From: a bacterium
GTDB taxonomy: Bacteria > RBG-13-61-14 > DATKZS01
Direction: 5' to 3'
Length of the DNA: 64,000 nucleotides
Assembly: GCA_963674965.2 (NCBI GenBank)
Contig: CAXXFL010000006.1
Span: 928,001-992,000, forward strand
Made by a program: the position numbers. Positions 24,001 to 30,000 of the stretch are shown one piece after another. How positions within the stretch are numbered: position 1 is the stretch's first letter; each line of letters starts with the position of its first letter.

Positions 24001-27000
24001 GTCGGAAAAAAGTTGAAGAAAAATGAAAAAACGACCCCCTCGCCACGTTCGGCAAAAAGCCTACTTGCCGCGAGGGGGTCTTTCATATTCGGCCCGGCAA
24101 AATACCGGCCCGGGAAGGGGGCCAGGACTGATGGGGCTCGCTCCCCGGGAAATACTCCCGAGGACTCCGGCCATGCCTCCACGTCTCCGTGAAGGAACTC
24201 AGTCCCCAGCACAACGGAATCCTATGTTGTTGTTCTGGTTAGTAGGCGTATTGTTGTTCCGGTTTGCTACGCGCAGGTTGTTCGTATTGTTGTTCCAATT
24301 GCCGCCGCGCAAAACGCGATACGTTATCGGCCACCCTCCCCAATCACGAATACAAACGATGGCAGCATTTGCGCTCTGAGTTTGTAGCTGTCGGCATAGG
24401 ACGCGTGAGACAGCCATGAAGTAACCGAGGCACCGATCTCCGAAAGCGCGACCTCGCCTCTCGAATATTCATCCTGCAACCGCCTCATCCTGGCCTTGAA
24501 GCGTCTGACGTTTTCCTTGCGCACCTTGGTCATGTGCGGCAGGTGCCTGAACCCGAGGAACTCCACTCCCTCCTTCACCGTGTATATCCTGCTCTTACCG
24601 TCATGGATTGAAAGTCGAAGCCCGGCCAGGTAATCGACCACCGCGGACCTGATCTCGTTCAGCCGATTCTTGTCGTCGCCGAAGATGCAAAAGTCGTCCA
24701 CATAGCGGACATACGGCCCGGCCCTGAGCTCCTCCTTAACCCAGTGGTCGAAGTCATTTAGGTAAAGGTTGGCGAAGAACTGGCTGGTCAGGTTGCCCAC
24801 CGGGATGCCGCGTCTCCTTTCATGCGGCGTGAACAGGCCGTCGCCGGGGTAGTAAATGATCGGCCCCTTGTCATTGAAACAGCGCGAGCCGATGATCTCG
24901 GAAAGCAGCCACATCGCGTCCCGGTCCGCGATCCTGCGCGAAAGTTTCCCGATCAGTATCTCGTGGTCAATGCTCTGGAAATATTTGCGGATGTCGCACT
25001 TGAGCACATACTTGTGGCGCTTGAGGAACTCCCGGAATCGCATGAGCGCTGCATGCGTGCCCTTGCCCTTTCTGCAGGCATAGCTGTCGGGGATGAAGCT
25101 TTTATCGAACAGCGGTTCGATAATATTGGTCACCGCGTGATGGACCACCCGGTCGCGATAGGGCGCGGCAGAAATCAGCCGCTTCTTTGCGTCCTTGACA
25201 ATGAAGTCGTGGTACGGGCCGTGATGATAGATTTTATGTAGCAGTTCGTCATGAAGCCGAAACAGGTTCCTCTCCAGGTCCATGTTGAAAATGAGCGTGC
25301 TCTCCCGGTAGCGCTTGCCATTCTGTGCTTTTTTGGAAGCCAGCAAGAGGTTCTGAAAACTCGCGATCTCGGGGAAGATGTTTTTGAAAGTCTTGGCCAA
25401 TACTCCGCCTCACGTCTTCTTTGCCGCCTGCTTGCGCCAGCCGCCCACCTGGCTGCCAAGCTCGGTAATCATCTTCATCACGTGCTCGTAGCCCTTGTTG
25501 GAAAGAGCACCAAGGTCACGGCTAAGGCGAAGAAGAAAGCGAAGACGCTCCAGCCGTCGATTTGCTTCATCAAGCAGGTGTACTTTATCACGACGATATG
25601 ATGCCTCTGTTAAAATCTCAAGAATCGAAAGGCAATTGTCCACGATCCTCTCTCCGAGCGAATACTTAAGATCTTTTGGAAACTTTGAAACCCTTGGCAA
25701 AACCTCTTTGCACAGATCATACGCCTTTTGAACAGCGGGAAGTTCTTTCTTCATTTTTAAAAATTTTTTAATGGGGGCTTACGCCCCCATTAAAGTGTAA
25801 GAGTTAAAAAGGACAAAAGAGTAATCAGTCCCCAGCACAACGGAAGCCTATGAAGACGCTCTGGGCAGTAGGCGAAAGGTTGTACCGGTTCGCCACGCGC
25901 AGGGTGCCCGAAGTGATGTGCCAACCCCCGCCGCGCAAAACGCGATACGTACCTGACGCGGGACCGGGAGGATCGTTGGTGGGACTTGTACTGTAGTAAT
26001 CGCTCTGATACCAGTCGTTGACCCATTCATAAACATTACCCCCCACATCATAAAGACCGTAACCATTAGCAGGATAGCTTTCAACCTCGCTGGTATCTCC
26101 AATACACCAATCGTAATTTGCGTCAACACATGCTGTAGCTGTATCTCCCCAGGGATAGCGTTTGCCGGACAGGCCGCCACGGGCAGCGTACTCCCACTCG
26201 GCCTCGGTGGGCAGTCTCTTGCCCGCCCAGGCGCAATAGGCCGTGGCCTGATTCCAGTCAACCCAGATAACAGGAAAATTGTCATAGGTCGGATTACCGT
26301 AATAAGAGCCGCGAGAATAACTTGAAGAATAGCCGGGCGCCGTGCATCCCCCTCCGCTCACGCAAGCCGCGTACTCCGAGTTGGTCACCTCATGAACGTC
26401 CATGTAGAAGTCCGAGGTGATGCAAACGTTATGCACCGGAAGTTCATCGCTGCTTCCCTCGCTGAACGCGTCGCCCATGTTGAAACAGCCGGAGGGGATA
26501 AGGGCCATTGGGCCGACAGTGCTTCCTCCCTGGCAGTCAGGGTCATCACCGTCGATCTTGCCGTCGCAGTCATTATCGAAACCGTCGTCACAGACTTCGG
26601 CCGCGCCGGGGTTTATGGAGGCGTCGACATCGTTGCAATCCGTGGTGGCCGTGGCCCCGTCAACGACCTTTGAGTAACCGTCCCCGTCGTAATCGCTCTT
26701 ATTGTAAAAGGCCGTAAGCCAGCCTCCTTCTACCTTCAAGGCATAAGGCACGCTGGCGATCCTGGACCGGGGCGACATCTCGCCATCGCTTTCAACCTCG
26801 ACTCCCATCCACACGTCCTGGTGGTTCTGGAAGACAGCGGAGAGGCTTGGCTCGGTACCCGGCGTTACCGTGCCCGAGCCGATGAGAACATTATAAAGCC
26901 CGCCGGTGACCGCCACGTCCTCCTGGAGAACGGTCAGATAAGCGGTCCCGCCCGTTTCAACACCATAAAACGCGAACGTCAGATCAACGGTAGACCCGTC

Positions 27001-30000
27001 CGCAAGAGGCTGGCCTGCAGAGTTCGTGAGCCGCCCCTGGTAATTGATAAGCTGCGGAGCGGACTGCGCCCAGGCAATGCCCACCACCACGGCCATAACA
27101 AAAACACCAACCAACGCCATTCCAATCTTAGCCCTCATGACTTAATCCCCCTTCTTCGAGATTTATAGACAATTATCCATATGTTACCATGCTGTAAATT
27201 ACAATACTATCCCCCCCCCCCCGATTGTCAACCTCCGATTATTAAAATAGTGATCGCAGCTTAGCGGCGGCAAAAGCTTCCGCGGATGCTAATTCTTCGA
27301 TCTCGACAATTGGCCCTCGCATGCCTTTATAGGGTGATAGGGTTTTCTGGTGGTACGCCAGGAAATCCTCGGGAAGCGATTTGACTCCAGCTTCCACAAG
27401 CCGGTTGATGACCCAGTCGGCCTCCTCCTGAGCTTCTTGGTTGCCGGGGAAGTACTTGATGACCAGGTCGAGTCCGGGGCCGGGCCCCTGGACCCAGACG
27501 CCGATTGGCTCGTAATGGGGATCGCGAATGCGGTCGCGGAGCGCGTACTCGATCATGTAGCGGAGCTTCATTCCCACTCCTCCGCGATCCGGATGTGTTC
27601 TTCAAGGATGCTCTGATCGGCGGTCTCAAACCTCTCCTTGTTCTCGGCCTTGTACTTTTGCCAGGCCTTCCAGTCTTCGACCATCCCCGGCTCCGAAACC
27701 TCCATGATCAATTCCACGTGGAAGCGCCGGTCCATGTCATCGAACAAATCAATCAGGTAGGTGTCGTCCTGATCCCAGCGCCGGACCTTGATGGTGTGCG
27801 AATACTGGAACCCTTGGTCGTAGCCAGCCATCTTGAAAAGGAGCCAGAAGTCCACGTGGGTCATTTCGCCCGAGGCGTTGAAAATCGGGGCCACGCGGGT
27901 GACCGTGTAGCTGTCAACCAGGCCCAGGCGGATCGACTCACTGCCGCGCTCCCGCATCTCGATCCACGATCCTTGCTGGTTGAACTCCGCGAACAGGGCC
28001 TGCAGTCGCTCTTTTTCCTTTTCGATAAACTCCTTCATGCTCACCTCGCAATCACAATATCCTCGACCTTGCGGCCGTCGGGAAGTTTCACGATACCCTT
28101 CTTGCGGAATGAATCCAGTATCTTTTTCCGCTCGTTCTGGCTCCCGACCACGATGACCTCGATGTTGTCCAAGAGCGTCACCGAATACTTGAATATGGTC
28201 TCGTTGCCGCTCTTCTTCGCGAACCTTTTCCACTCCTCGGGAGTGCTGCCGCGATGCCGCGTCACGTAGTCGTCCACCACTTTGCCGTAAGCGTCATGGT
28301 CGTAACTTATCGCGTCCATCCGGCGCAGGAGCCGCTTCTTGAAGTACAGCCCGGTTTCGCCCGGCCCTCTTTCCGGCACCTTCTTTATCCGCGTGAAAAA
28401 GTAGCTTGCTCCGCCGGTTCTCATGTCCTCTTCGGGCGACATTCCTCCCACCGGGACCCCGGCCCGCAGTTTCTCGACGGTGCTTACCGCCGCGCCGTTC
28501 TGCTCGATCACCTTGTCGAGGAATGAGGACACGCTCTCTCCATTGGTGAGGTGGTGATGGAGCGCATAGCCTTTCATCTGCTTCTCCAGGTCCTCGTCCG
28601 AGATATCGAACCGGTATTGATGCCTGTAACCGGCGCTTTTGCCGGGCTGCTTGAACGCCAACTGGTGCTCGCCGATGGGATCATAACCCGGCATGCGAGT
28701 CAGGTCTTTCACGCCCAGGCGTTTTTCCCAGAACGACCGCATCTCCCGGACACGGACTTCCTTGCTCGCGGACCGCCGATCAAGGTCGGCGACTATCTTC
28801 TTGTATGCCGCGTCCTTGTCTACCTTGGACAGATAAGCCTGCTTGTGAAGGTAGAGCAGTTCGGCGTCCTCGGCGGTAGCCGGGGTGGAGTTGAGTCCAA
28901 GGCTCTCCATGTGCTCCATCGCCCGCTCCATGCTCTTCGCGTCCGGGCGATCCGGCAGAACTATCTCGAACTCGCCCCGCTGGGCATAGAGGTTCTTCTC
29001 CGACCAGGGGCGGTACACGGCCTTTATGCCGTCGCCGAAGTCAACTTCGTACTGCTCGCCAGCCTTCATGCTGTGGCCCTTGAACATGGCGGAATTGTCC
29101 GAGTTCTCGTTCACCACCACCAGGTCGCCCTTCTTCAGTTCGCGTTTCTCGTGCAGGACCTTCGAGCGAGTAACCTTGAAACCCGCGTCCTTGGCCTTAG
29201 CCGGGCGAGGCGATTCGTGCTTCTTGGTATAGGCACCGAACATTTCATTTATCGGCTTCTTGGCCCGCTCGGCATCCTCGATCTTGGAGAGCCAGGCCAG
29301 GTACTCGTTGGCCATGCCCCGAACGTCTGGGTCGCTCGACTGGGCCAGCTTCTGGAGCGCCTTTTCGTAGCCCTTGGCCTTGTTCAGCTTGTCCTGGTTG
29401 TACTTCTTGTCGTCTTTGTGGTGGTTGATGGTCTTGGCGGCGGCCAGGATGTCATCGGCGAACCGGTCCTCGGGCAAGGTGTCGCCGACCTTGGTCGAGG
29501 CGGGATCAATCCCGGCCTTCTTGAGCGCCTCCAGGATTTTCGCGTCGGCCTCGGGCCGGACCTTCATTTTGACCACGGTCCGCTCCTTGCCCTTGGCTTT
29601 TTCAACGAAAATGAGAGCGTTCTGGTCCTCGATGTCATCTTCGTCAATGGGAAGCGCTTTTCCCTGCCAACCAAGGCGCCTTACTTCCTCGATTAATTTT
29701 TCATCCTCCGGACCGAGGCGTCCCTTTTTGGCGATAGGTTCAGCCGCGTCCTCGAAACGGAACCCCTTTTTGCCAAGGACGTCTGAGTAGAAAGATTCGA
29801 AGTCGCGACGAAGGTTGCGCTTTCGATCCAGGGCCGTCTCGTAAAAAGCCTTCTTTTTCGCTTCGTCCTTCCCGAACCGGCCCTCGACGTATGGGCGCAG
29901 CATATCCAGATAGTCGTCATCCGATATTTTTTCGACTTCGCGGATGTACTTCAGCGTGACGGAGGGGTCGGGTTTAACCTTGCCTTGCTTGGCCGCCCTG

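Follow-up and report, generated by a model that had tools for sequence, protein, structure and literature searches.

A diversity-generating retroelement carried by a prophage has a template that matches two distant chromosomal genes at every nonadenine position

The only diversity-generating retroelement (DGR) of the genome is complete and forms a cargo module within the head region of a prophage; the DGR template (TR) differs only at adenines from the 3′-terminal repeats (VRs) of two chromosomal genes, one about 220 kb away and one on another contig. Considering all of the evidence, we lean toward the view that a prophage-borne DGR of cellular type homes in trans to these two genes.

RESULTS

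The window contains a complete DGR cassette

Coordinates given without a contig prefix are positions in the window, i.e., the whole stretch of 64,000 nucleotides that was analyzed; C6r and C2r designate the remote targets on contigs C6 and C2. The features of the cassette, which is read on the minus strand in the order promoter, target gene with VR, hairpin, avd, reverse transcriptase (RT), TR, structured spacer, and terminator, are listed in Table 1.

Table 1. Positions of the cassette, the remote VRs and the surrounding prophage
Feature	Position	Strand	Description
Complete DGR cassette	24035..27241	-	Discrete prophage cargo module, ~3.2-3.3 kb
Sigma-70-like promoter of target gene	27204..27231	-	TTGACA, 16-nt spacer with G12 run, TAGTAT
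cis target gene	25825..27138	-	437 aa; Sec signal peptide, MopE-like motif, FGE-sulfatase/C-type-lectin domain
cis VR	25825..25950	-	Final 42 codons including stop
Hairpin after cis VR	25767..25794	-	12-bp stem, loop GTAA
avd accessory gene	25410..25754	-	114 aa; Pfam bAvd, E 1.7e-19
DGR reverse transcriptase	24324..25400	-	358 aa, TTG start; RVT_1, E 3.7e-27
TR	24199..24324	-	126 nt, 41 adenines; first base is last base of RT stop codon
Structured spacer downstream of TR	24036..24198	-	Ends in intrinsic terminator 24059-24036
C6r VR	C6:1175939-1176064		~220 kb from cassette, same contig; 25/0 mismatches versus TR (adenine/other)
C2r VR	C2:337085-337210		Read 337210 to 337085; 23/0 mismatches versus TR (adenine/other)
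Prophage, myovirus-like	1..58072, past the window's left end to ~C6:917805	-	PHROGs, synteny
Integrase end of prophage	57545-58072		Serine integrase
tRNA-Asn	58715-58790		Just beyond integrase end
AbiEi/AbiEii toxin-antitoxin pair	34565..36363	+	Pfam AbiEii E 4.9e-29, AbiEi_4 E 1.1e-5

The promoter agrees with the consensus at 10 of 12 positions, and the same promoter unit is found upstream of several target paralogs. Residues 211 to 435 of the cis target form its FGE-sulfatase domain, and the VR lies at the 3′ end of the gene. In the PDB, the protein matched a formylglycine-generating-type enzyme (FGE; E 1.6e-46) and "Treponema denticola variable protein 1" (2y3c; E 1e-24). The hairpin behind the cis VR has a DNA folding energy of -16.3 kcal/mol (z -4.9), which was equaled by none of 200 shuffled sequences. 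Avd scored 98.3 bits with the NCBIfam model NF033474 (DivGenRetAVD; cut-off, 80), and none of the NCBIfam models for DGR RTs scored above cut-off on the RT. The closest solved structure to the RT is 8ub7 (E 1.5e-50), which we take to be a Bordetella phage RT, and both VGNLTSQ and YVDD are aligned with it, leaving the catalytic motif intact; the SQ motif is a mark of DGR RTs.

The direct repeat of 126 nt (24199-24324 and 25825-25950) proved to be real, and its A-rich minus-strand copy (41 A in 126 nt) is the TR, in which 36 of the 41 adenines occupy codon positions 1 and 2. The spacer behind it is 85 to 93% identical across three related genera, and a similar sequence follows the TR at all seven of the nearest RT loci in other genomes. 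TR and spacer together fold as RNA with a z of -3.2, compensatory pairs amounting to only 1 of 48. An open reading frame at 23880-24212 was considered as an accessory gene and rejected, since its conservation is at the nucleotide level, ends at the terminator, and belongs to a sequence that folds as RNA. Judged by sequence, the reading frames, the catalytic motif, and Avd are all intact and the cassette is a DGR, a designation with which RT, Avd, the adenine pattern of TR and VR, and the C-type lectin VR gene all fit.

The DGR is prophage cargo

The position of the cassette in the head region of a prophage was confirmed. PHROGs matches comprise baseplate, tape measure, sheath, tube, major head, MuF-like, portal, terminase, primase, helicase, repressor, and serine integrase genes, and phage genes flank the cassette on both sides, with the major head gene (18767-19630; E 1.4e-84), sheath, and tape measure on one side and the MuF-like (28041-32612) and portal (32625-34274; E 2.5e-62) genes on the other. 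Wu et al. 2018 call a DGR phage associated if phage structural homologs (E ≤ 1e-20) lie within 20 kb on both sides, which is what we found here. The prophage ends are approximate, the left being set by synteny and the right by integrase and tRNA-Asn; a search for att sites gave no repeat longer than 14 nt joining them.

A sister prophage in another genus (G003:C135) is syntenic with C6:917805-978613 over ~60 kb at 72 to 87% identity. Its alignment runs to window position 27329 and resumes at 24027; in place of 24027-27329 it has 86 nt, which are only the diverged end of the open reading frame 27242-27577. The DGR is thus cargo of the prophage. In a second prophage remnant, the corresponding slot is occupied by a GmrSD gene. 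What the survey had taken for an insertion sequence at 34565-36363 is instead an AbiEi/AbiEii pair, and since G003:C135 has 57 nt in place of 34183-36380, this pair is a second cargo insert.

The other members of the RT clade lie among cellular genes, and the architecture of the present DGR is target gene-avd-RT-TR. The element is better called a phage-captured cellular-type DGR than a typical phage DGR. Among the viral contigs searched, the best RT match was 41% identical, with no close phage relative. Between genera, RT fragments are 74 to 100% and TR/spacer 86 to 92% identical, compared to 43 to 67% for MnmA and IlvD. RT, TR, and prophage, being far more alike across genera than housekeeping proteins are, thus look horizontally mobile.

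Two remote VRs differ from the TR at adenines only

When the whole genome was searched with the TR, eight full-length VR-like matches were returned at E < 1e-10, in agreement with the survey, and 11 when the cut-off was set at E ≤ 0.006. Against the TR, the cis VR has 23/1 mismatches (at TR adenines/elsewhere), C6r has 25/0, and C2r has 23/0, as had been reported, with hypergeometric P values for the placement of mismatches on A sites of 4e-13, 6e-16, and 2e-14, respectively. The VRs of the other paralogs gave 22/7, 24/10, 26/9, 31/9, 21/19, 24/23, and 23/29. Nonadenine mismatches are therefore bimodal, with 0 to 1 in three VRs and 7 to 29 in all others, and solely the cis, C6r, and C2r VRs are identical to the TR over the terminal 21 nt. 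Both remote VRs also show two of the features that Wu et al. 2018 require of remote targets, namely, A-to-N differences only and a distance of >100 kb from the RT.

The genome holds more than 15 lectin-domain paralogs, and the remote repeats might resemble the TR through gene-family membership alone. Paralogs with equal or higher flank identity (70.5 to 78.8%), however, have 7 to 19 nonadenine mismatches, and the P values above are those for all mismatches of the remote VRs falling on 41 adenines. Chance or ordinary paralogy is already refuted by the mismatch pattern, these P values, and the silent-site comparison given below, and we attach practically no weight to it.

The single nonadenine mismatch of the cis VR is at position 24, a silent site, where TR, C6r, and C2r have C and both the cis VR and the TR homolog of another genus (G002) have G. 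On the simplest reading, the remote VRs would have been written no earlier than the cis VR.

As the survey had stated, the genome encodes one DGR-type RT: of the three RVT_1 matches in the assembly, which is 97.6% complete, two are instead fragments of group II introns. The TR is the only A-rich copy of the repeat in the genome, in which we found neither a TR source locus outside the prophage nor any other TR or RT of DGR type.

The C2 VR was almost certainly written from the present TR sequence

The survey had given 74.7% identity for the C2r flank; recomputed against the cis target, the value is 76.0% (454 of 597), and the observation that all 85 nonadenine positions of the repeat are kept stands. 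None of the 37 silent third positions of the C2r VR differ from the TR, compared to 37% in the flank versus the cis gene (P ~5e-8), and the match ends exactly at the TR ends. By our arithmetic, zero changes at 37 silent sites are compatible with up to ~8% silent divergence since the last homing. The states at adenine sites are independent of those in the cis and C6r VRs, which excludes plain gene conversion. The C2 VR was thus almost certainly written by cDNA of the present TR sequence; as far as these comparisons can tell, only homing from a TR with exactly the present nonadenine sequence fits.

The hairpin follows the VRs of the cis gene, C6r, C2_268, C2_335, and C2_270, and there is none after C2r, where the downstream region folds with a z of -1.6 and 16 of 200 shuffles are as stable. 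C2_335, the tandem twin and neighbor of C2r, adjoins a local avd stub and has a VR with 10 nonadenine mismatches. The stub region on C2 is ~85% like the prophage cassette, and together these values suggest that the dead local cassette probably had another TR. In windows of 100 nt, C2r and C2_335 are 95 to 100% identical over the N-terminal half and 78 to 93% over the lectin domain. Given the latter range, the 10 nonadenine differences between their VRs are unexceptional, and we dropped them as extra evidence. Scanning of metagenomes with the C2 target left 80 loci; the top one matched at 74%, over the lectin domain only, and there was thus no orthologue for population comparison.

At least one VR was rewritten very recently

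Prophage and C6 copies are identical over 852 + 142 = 994 flanking bases and differ at 29 positions within the VR, of which 28 are TR adenines, exactly as the survey had reported. At least one of the two VRs has therefore been rewritten very recently, after very recent recombination. We consider it improbable that the intact cassette now homes nowhere and that the three VRs have all become relics: DGRs often decay in the family (see below), but the cassette is intact in frames, catalytic motif, and Avd, and 29 VR differences versus none in the flanks require homing later than any point substitution in ~1 kb.

The identical tract shared with the prophage copy is 1.1 kb long and spans the C6r VR, so that C6r may have preserved, through gene conversion, a former state of the cis VR, for which no homing in trans would be needed. 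Such an origin needs a nonadenine change at position 24 of the cis VR that happens to equal the state of the G002 TR.

Dead cassettes accompany both remote targets

Host genes surround both remote targets, as described previously, and the targets themselves are chromosomal and encode lectin-fold proteins that are secreted or lipoproteins. The genome contains three dead cassettes, two of them avd stubs and the third a VR-spacer fusion (C4:80523-80743) that shows apparent cassette loss through recombination of VR with TR. The survey had noted an avd remnant at one remote target; local tblastn of the genome with the Avd protein placed stubs beside both, directly after C6r (aa 1 to 52) and after the C2 array (aa 1 to 24; 1.4 kb from C2r), followed by a 5′-truncated GH97 gene. 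Beyond the conversion tract, the stub at C6r is ~70% identical to the prophage cassette. At the other paralogs, 3 to 14 of 37 silent VR sites are mismatched, fewer than in the flanks, which suggests that decaying former targets are common in the genome. Related genera likewise have RT remnants, as had been claimed, and avd stubs; judging from these, DGRs of this bacterial family decay frequently.

Since both remote targets adjoin avd stubs, their VRs could be fossils, written by a chromosomal copy of the cassette that preceded its move into the prophage or by another cassette, since lost, whose TR was the same, with the prophage DGR now serving its own target only. The stubs, the cassette loss on C4, the tract across the C6r VR, the missing hairpin at C2r, and the series of decaying VRs in other paralogs all agree with this. 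Wu et al. 2018 also require that a remote target be "not part of another DGR," on which ground both could be set aside; in the supplement of that study (PMC5758913), as far as it was available, comparable cases are set aside and such a case is discounted as "part of an inactivated DGR." However, there is no TR source locus outside the prophage, cassettes as diverged as the stubs (~70% at C6r and ~85% on C2) should have had TRs that do not match at 85 of 85 positions, nothing lies between 0 to 1 and at least 7 nonadenine mismatches, and C6r needs the coincidence at position 24. We regard the fossil origin of both remote VRs as unlikely, though by no means negligible.

Four public runs were listed, three of them with part of the C2 locus, all as Logan contigs and with no RNA data among the holders listed. 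Coverage of the locus under study comes only from assembled contigs of two runs from one sample, in which paralogs and the TR cross-map at 80% likeness, and L030:10772-11387 is without cover in the public-run contigs.

DISCUSSION

Homing in trans from the prophage had been proposed by the survey. The complete and sole DGR, its status as prophage cargo, the two host VRs with adenine-only differences, and the homing of the C2 VR from the TR sequence support it in part; we further infer that the TR was already located in the prophage when the remote VRs were written and that homing goes on at present. According to the model that we favor, a temperate myovirus-like prophage would have captured a cellular-type DGR as cargo of its head region. 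RT and Avd would copy the TR-spacer RNA into cDNA with misreading of adenines, and this cDNA would take the place of every VR with a 3′ end like that of the TR. There are three such VRs, i.e., those of the cassette target, of the C6 gene 220 kb off, and of the C2 gene on the other contig. With the host cassettes beside the remote genes dead, the prophage would now be the sole engine. Beyond the survey's finding, the present analysis adds the sister prophage lacking the cassette, the cellular RT clade, the mobility across genera, the three dead cassettes, and the identity of AbiEi/AbiEii.

More tentatively, the system might represent lysogenic conversion by hypermutation, whereby the phage carries the DGR between genera of a single bacterial family, rearms on lysogeny those orphaned host targets whose own cassettes have decayed, and decides which surface lectins of the host can still diversify. 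The cargo slot, the three dead cassettes, the likeness of RT and TR across genera, and the two remote VRs with all nonadenine positions untouched fit such a reading, which we nevertheless hold to be possible rather than probable.

In the available passages of Wu et al. 2018 (PMC5758913), which read as the survey had quoted them, remote-target DGRs are taken to be cellular, since a phage cannot take distant host genes along. The present case suggests a route by which this rule can fail, namely, that the engine rather than the targets is mobile, related hosts already holding matching target families. If homing in trans from the prophage is true, hypermutation aimed at host surface proteins would be turned on or off as the prophage is gained or lost, and DGR engines could spread by phage among bacteria with a common target family. 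The genome thus offers a concrete system for testing homing in trans, hairpin-free target recognition, and the turnover of DGR cassettes.

The prototype DGR, that of the temperate Bordetella phage BPP-1, diversifies the phage's own tail fiber and has the order avd-TR-RT; it comprises RT, Avd, and a TR with downstream spacer, mutagenizes adenines, and has a hairpin after the VR. The present element shares with it carriage by a temperate phage, the set of RT, Avd, TR, and spacer, adenine mutagenesis, and the post-VR hairpin. In contrast to BPP-1, its target is a secreted host-type protein, host genes match its TR, and the TR search of the whole genome found no tail gene with a VR.

The DGR of Treponema denticola, with TvpA and remote targets, resembles it in the C-type lectin fold of the formylglycine-enzyme type and in having one TR for several targets, some of them distant, but is described in the available text of Wu et al. 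2018 (PMC5758913) as chromosomal and without phage association, whereas here the only engine is in a prophage. The CP000393.1 DGR, assigned to Lineage 4 in the part of Table S1 of that study available to us (order TG-AVD-RT-TR-TG, FGE-sulfatase targets, seven of them nonadjacent), is alike in its gene order, in which the TR likewise follows the RT, in its target domain, and in targets hundreds of kilobases off; it is given there without phage association. Prophage- and ICE-borne DGRs of Bacteroides diversify pilin-like proteins (Macadangdang et al., preprint 10.1101/2024.11.15.621889), so that there, too, the DGR of a mobile element diversifies a bacterial surface protein and evolvability moves horizontally; in the portion of that text at hand, which does not contain the words "in trans" or "remote," the gene for the variable protein accompanies the DGR on the mobile element. 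Finally, gut prophages whose DGRs likewise have more than one VR, the second being distal from the RT, are described in PMC12629997; in the accessible part of that report, these second VRs lie inside the same prophage, unlike the remote VRs described here, which lie in host genes.

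Anatomy of the cassette

Only one long direct repeat was found in the window, with two copies that are 81% identical. Since the copy at 24199-24324 is the adenine-rich one on the minus strand (41 A in 126 nt, of which 36 lie in codon positions 1 and 2, in AAC-type codons), it was identified as the template repeat (TR); the other is the variable repeat (VR) of the cassette's own target gene, here called the cis VR. The features of the DGR and of the two remote VRs that fit its TR, C6r and C2r, are collected below.

Features of the DGR cassette, the prophage and the related target genes. 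Positions refer to the window unless a contig is named; mismatches to TR are given as at TR adenines/elsewhere.
Feature	Location	Strand	Details
Target gene	25825-27138	-	437 aa; FGE-sulfatase/C-type-lectin domain
avd	25410-25754	-	NCBIfam DGR-Avd model, 98.3 bits (cut-off 80)
RT	24324-25400	-	Best solved relative 8ub7, E 1.5e-50; VGNLTSQ and YVDD aligned
TR	24199-24324	-	First base shared with the end of the RT stop codon
Intrinsic terminator	24059-24036	-	Bounds one side of the cassette
Cassette (cis gene) promoter	27231-27204	-	Bounds the other side; G12, 16-nt spacer
Promoter units of the family	27204-27231; C6:1174654; C2:271872; C2:269913; C4:79230		TTGACA/TAGTAT with poly-G
C6r promoter			G14, 19-nt spacer
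C2_270 promoter			G9, 11-nt spacer
C2_268 promoter			G8, 19-nt spacer
C4_80 promoter			G7, 17-nt spacer
cis VR	25825-25950		Mismatches 23/1
C6r	C6:1175939-1176064		Mismatches 25/0
C2r	C2:337210-337085		Mismatches 23/0
Large serine integrase	55920-57545		PHROGs match, beyond the cassette
tRNA-Asn	58715-58790		Just outside the prophage

The cis target carries a Sec signal peptide. Its residues 17-107 weakly matched the N-terminal model of Bdellovibrio mosaic adhesive trimer fibre proteins (37.5 bits, cut-off 60), a hint that the target family may form surface fibres with the variable lectin domain at the tip. A promoter unit (TTGACA ... TAGTAT) is common to the family of target genes, including the paralogs C2_270, C2_268 and C4_80, and the poly-G run in its spacer differs in length from gene to gene. 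This variation looks like slipped-strand phase variation, which would act on top of DGR diversification.

The approximately 165 nt 3' of the TR were 85 to 93% identical across three related genera, and TR and spacer folded together well (z -3.2), with weak covariation support for the spacer fold (1 compensatory pair in 48). We read this stretch as the probable counterpart of the DGR RNA spacer. The sequence after the TR (24036-24198; loci L205-L208 and L246) is kept across the whole RT clade, at 68 to 78% under other phylum-level labels, and may represent a definable RNA family of DGRs of the target-avd-RT-TR type.

The cassette as prophage cargo

The survey's finding had placed phage genes on both sides of the cassette, and PHROGs matches bore this out. 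On one side lie baseplate, tape measure, sheath, tube and major head (18767-19630) genes and a 1291-aa DNA methyltransferase; on the far side of the cassette come a MuF-like protein of 1523 aa, portal, terminase, primase, helicase, recombination genes and a CI/LexA-like repressor. The tail end of the prophage extends left beyond the window. A sister prophage in another genus (G003:C135) is syntenic with C6:917805-978613 at 72 to 87% nucleotide identity and has 86 nt instead of window 24027-27329, these 86 nt being merely the diverged end of ORF 27242-27577. This comparison delimits the cassette as a discrete 3.2-kb module, at about 24035-27241, which the prophage carries as cargo.

A prophage remnant of the same G003 genome (C102:69186-71154; L118:5345-7048) has a GmrSD-type restriction gene at the intergenic position where the DGR is found in the present prophage, a position that seems to be a hotspot for cargo. 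Between the portal and terminase genes (34565-36363, plus strand), where the sister prophage has 57 nt, sits an AbiEi/AbiEii toxin-antitoxin pair; it is this pair that had been taken for an IS. The slots of the DGR, the GmrSD gene and AbiEi/AbiEii are typical cargo positions. The left end of the prophage carries an amidoligase/glutamine amidotransferase/GGACT gene trio (C6:917658-920486; L036:9658-12486), after which, outside the synteny, come a SNF2-PLD helicase and an Eco57I-like methylase. Just outside the prophage stands a very large open frame (59639-64000, plus strand) that contains an array (61623-62816) of 8.3 tandem copies of an acidic-rich 144-nt unit with 95% matches; like repeats occur at many other loci of the genome.

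A cellular-type DGR with apparently mobile parts

The best match of the RT in viral contigs was 41% identical, and the best matches in species-representative genomes, at 66 to 73%, came from MAGs labelled Deltaproteobacteria or Myxococcales. Six of the seven nearest RT loci showed the order target-avd-RT, the seventh being cut by a contig end within the RT, and in all seven a match to TR plus spacer followed directly after the RT. Within at most 6 kb on each side of five of these loci, a search with Pfam alone found 31 ORFs with ordinary cellular families, one of them with an ORF6N domain; families of capsid, tail, portal or terminase proteins were absent. A Lineage 4 row of Table S1 in Wu et al. 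2018 (PMC5758913) lists the order target-avd-RT-TR, FGE-sulfatase targets and many remote targets. Judged by the flanks and gene order of its relatives and by this row, the cassette is a cellular-type DGR residing in a phage.

MnmA and IlvD were 43 to 67% identical between this genome and four same-family genomes. Compared with these values, the RT fragments (74 to 100%) and TR plus spacer (86 to 92%) in same-family genomes and the prophage between genera (72 to 87%) are more alike, so that both phage and DGR parts look horizontally mobile within the family. Two of the related genomes (G001 and G002) contain 5'-truncated RT pieces that adjoin genes for an antiporter and a periplasmic binding protein, and repeated avd stubs of 15 to 43 aa adjoining target genes; both assemblies are fragmented MAGs, and some of these RT and avd breaks may be assembly ends.

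Template matches across the genome

BLAST of the TR against the genome returned eight full-length VR-like places at E<1e-10, and the mismatch counts of the cis VR and the two remote VRs were reproduced. Both remote VRs differ from the TR at its adenines only. The remaining VR-like places had 22/7, 24/10, 26/9, 31/9, 21/19, 24/23 and 23/29 mismatches at TR adenines and elsewhere; non-adenine mismatches thus numbered either 0 to 1 or at least 7, with none between. That the remote VRs resemble the TR by chance is hardly credible, since the probability of every mismatch falling on the 41 adenines is 6e-16 for C6r and 2e-14 for C2r.

The claim that the genome holds one DGR only also stood. A six-frame search with RVT_1 gave three places including the cassette RT, the other two being halves of group II intron maturases; tblastn with the cassette RT brought up nothing further in the genome, and no second A-rich copy was present among the genome's repeat copies. 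The maturase gene fragments are complementary, one a C-terminal and the other an N-terminal half, and lie on separate contigs (C7:619194-619517 and C4:400603-400914).

Host context and dead cassettes

Both remote targets sit among host genes, as had been reported: C6r is neighboured by mnmA, an RNase III/radical-SAM gene, an MFS transporter and a Fic gene. C2r, which has a lipoprotein signal and an N-terminal domain unlike that of the cis target, is the middle one of three tandem lectin genes, an array between a 5'-truncated GH97 gene and exo/endo-phosphatase, RlpA-like, HAD, ilvD and bacA genes. The avd remnant earlier noticed beside one remote target exists, but both targets have one: a 52-codon stub directly follows C6r, and a stub of 20 to 24 codons stands behind the final gene of the C2 array. 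In a third relic (C4:80523-80743; L032:6524-6744), the VR-like end of a full-length paralog is fused straight to a copy, 85% identical over 95 nt, of the spacer downstream of the TR, the scar expected if VR x TR recombination had removed avd and RT.

Probable writing of C2r from a template of this sequence

The flank of C2r was 76.0% identical to the cis gene (454/597), not 74.7% as previously given, and 37% of third codon positions differed. Within the VR, all 85 non-adenine positions are kept, as had been claimed, with no mismatch at 37 third positions or at 48 others. Paralogs with flanks of 70.5 to 78.8% identity had 7 to 19 non-adenine mismatches. The perfect match starts and stops with the TR, and the adenine-site states of C2r are independent of those in the other two VRs (7 shared among 16-17 doubly changed sites, 5-6 expected). 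The diverged flank, the conserved silent and other non-adenine sites, the TR-bounded match and the independent adenine states together exclude ordinary gene conversion from another VR. We strongly infer that C2r was written in trans from a TR with exactly this non-adenine sequence. The dead local cassette on C2 is a poor candidate for this source, because the similarity of its stub and intergenic sequence to the prophage cassette is only about 85% and C2_335, the paralog adjoining the stub, has 10 non-adenine mismatches.

A 12-bp hairpin stands after the cis VR, after C6r and after three further paralogs, and C2r lacks it. By our own arithmetic, 0 changes at 37 silent sites are compatible with a silent divergence of as much as about 8% after the most recent event. 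Both points weigh against efficient present homing into C2r. That the remote VRs are orphans or fossils is a serious but less favoured explanation.

A gene conversion at C6r and later VR rewriting

As first reported, C6r and the prophage copy showed no difference in 994 flanking nt (852 upstream and 142 downstream of the VR) and 29 differing sites in the VR, 28 of them at TR adenines. Outside the identical tract, towards the 5' end, the genes are about 10% diverged (41 differences in 400 nt), and the avd stub is about 30% diverged from the prophage avd, in frame and with conservative replacements; because of this divergence, C6r must once have been part of a separate and older cassette. It was linked with the prophage copy by a recent gene conversion, since when at least one of the two VRs has been rewritten. 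Such rewriting is the best sign of very recent activity of the engine, and that the whole system is silent seems improbable to us.

The only non-adenine difference, at the silent position 24, is a C in TR, C6r and C2r and a G in the cis VR and the TR homolog of G002. On the simpler reading, the remote VRs would have been written from the present TR no earlier than the cis VR; a rare non-adenine error in cis homing would also explain the G.

With no other TR source in the genome, the gap between 0 to 1 and at least 7 non-adenine mismatches, and rewriting after gene conversion, we infer that the prophage probably carried the TR by the time C2r was written and that homing may continue. Trans homing from the prophage is, by a modest lead over even odds, the reading we prefer.

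Comparison with known systems

Full-text searches of the literature outside subscription journals turned up no account of a prophage DGR that homes into chromosomal genes of its host, apart from a remark of Wu et al. 2018 (PMC5758913). Passages of that survey state, as had been cited, that phage-associated DGRs were not expected to have targets more than 100 kb away, "all but one" agreeing, and discount remote candidates belonging to a DGR that has been inactivated. Roux et al. 2021 describe, in the section concerned, their own approach as unable to detect remote targets. Extracts of a Bacteroides preprint (10.1101/2024.11.15.621889) report DGRs, borne by prophages and ICEs, that serve bacterial pilin-like proteins encoded by the element itself, and those of PMC12629997 second VRs within the same prophage. 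The present system is a real and well-formed case, and its anatomy of phage cargo, dead host cassettes and cross-genus mobility is more interesting than first described.
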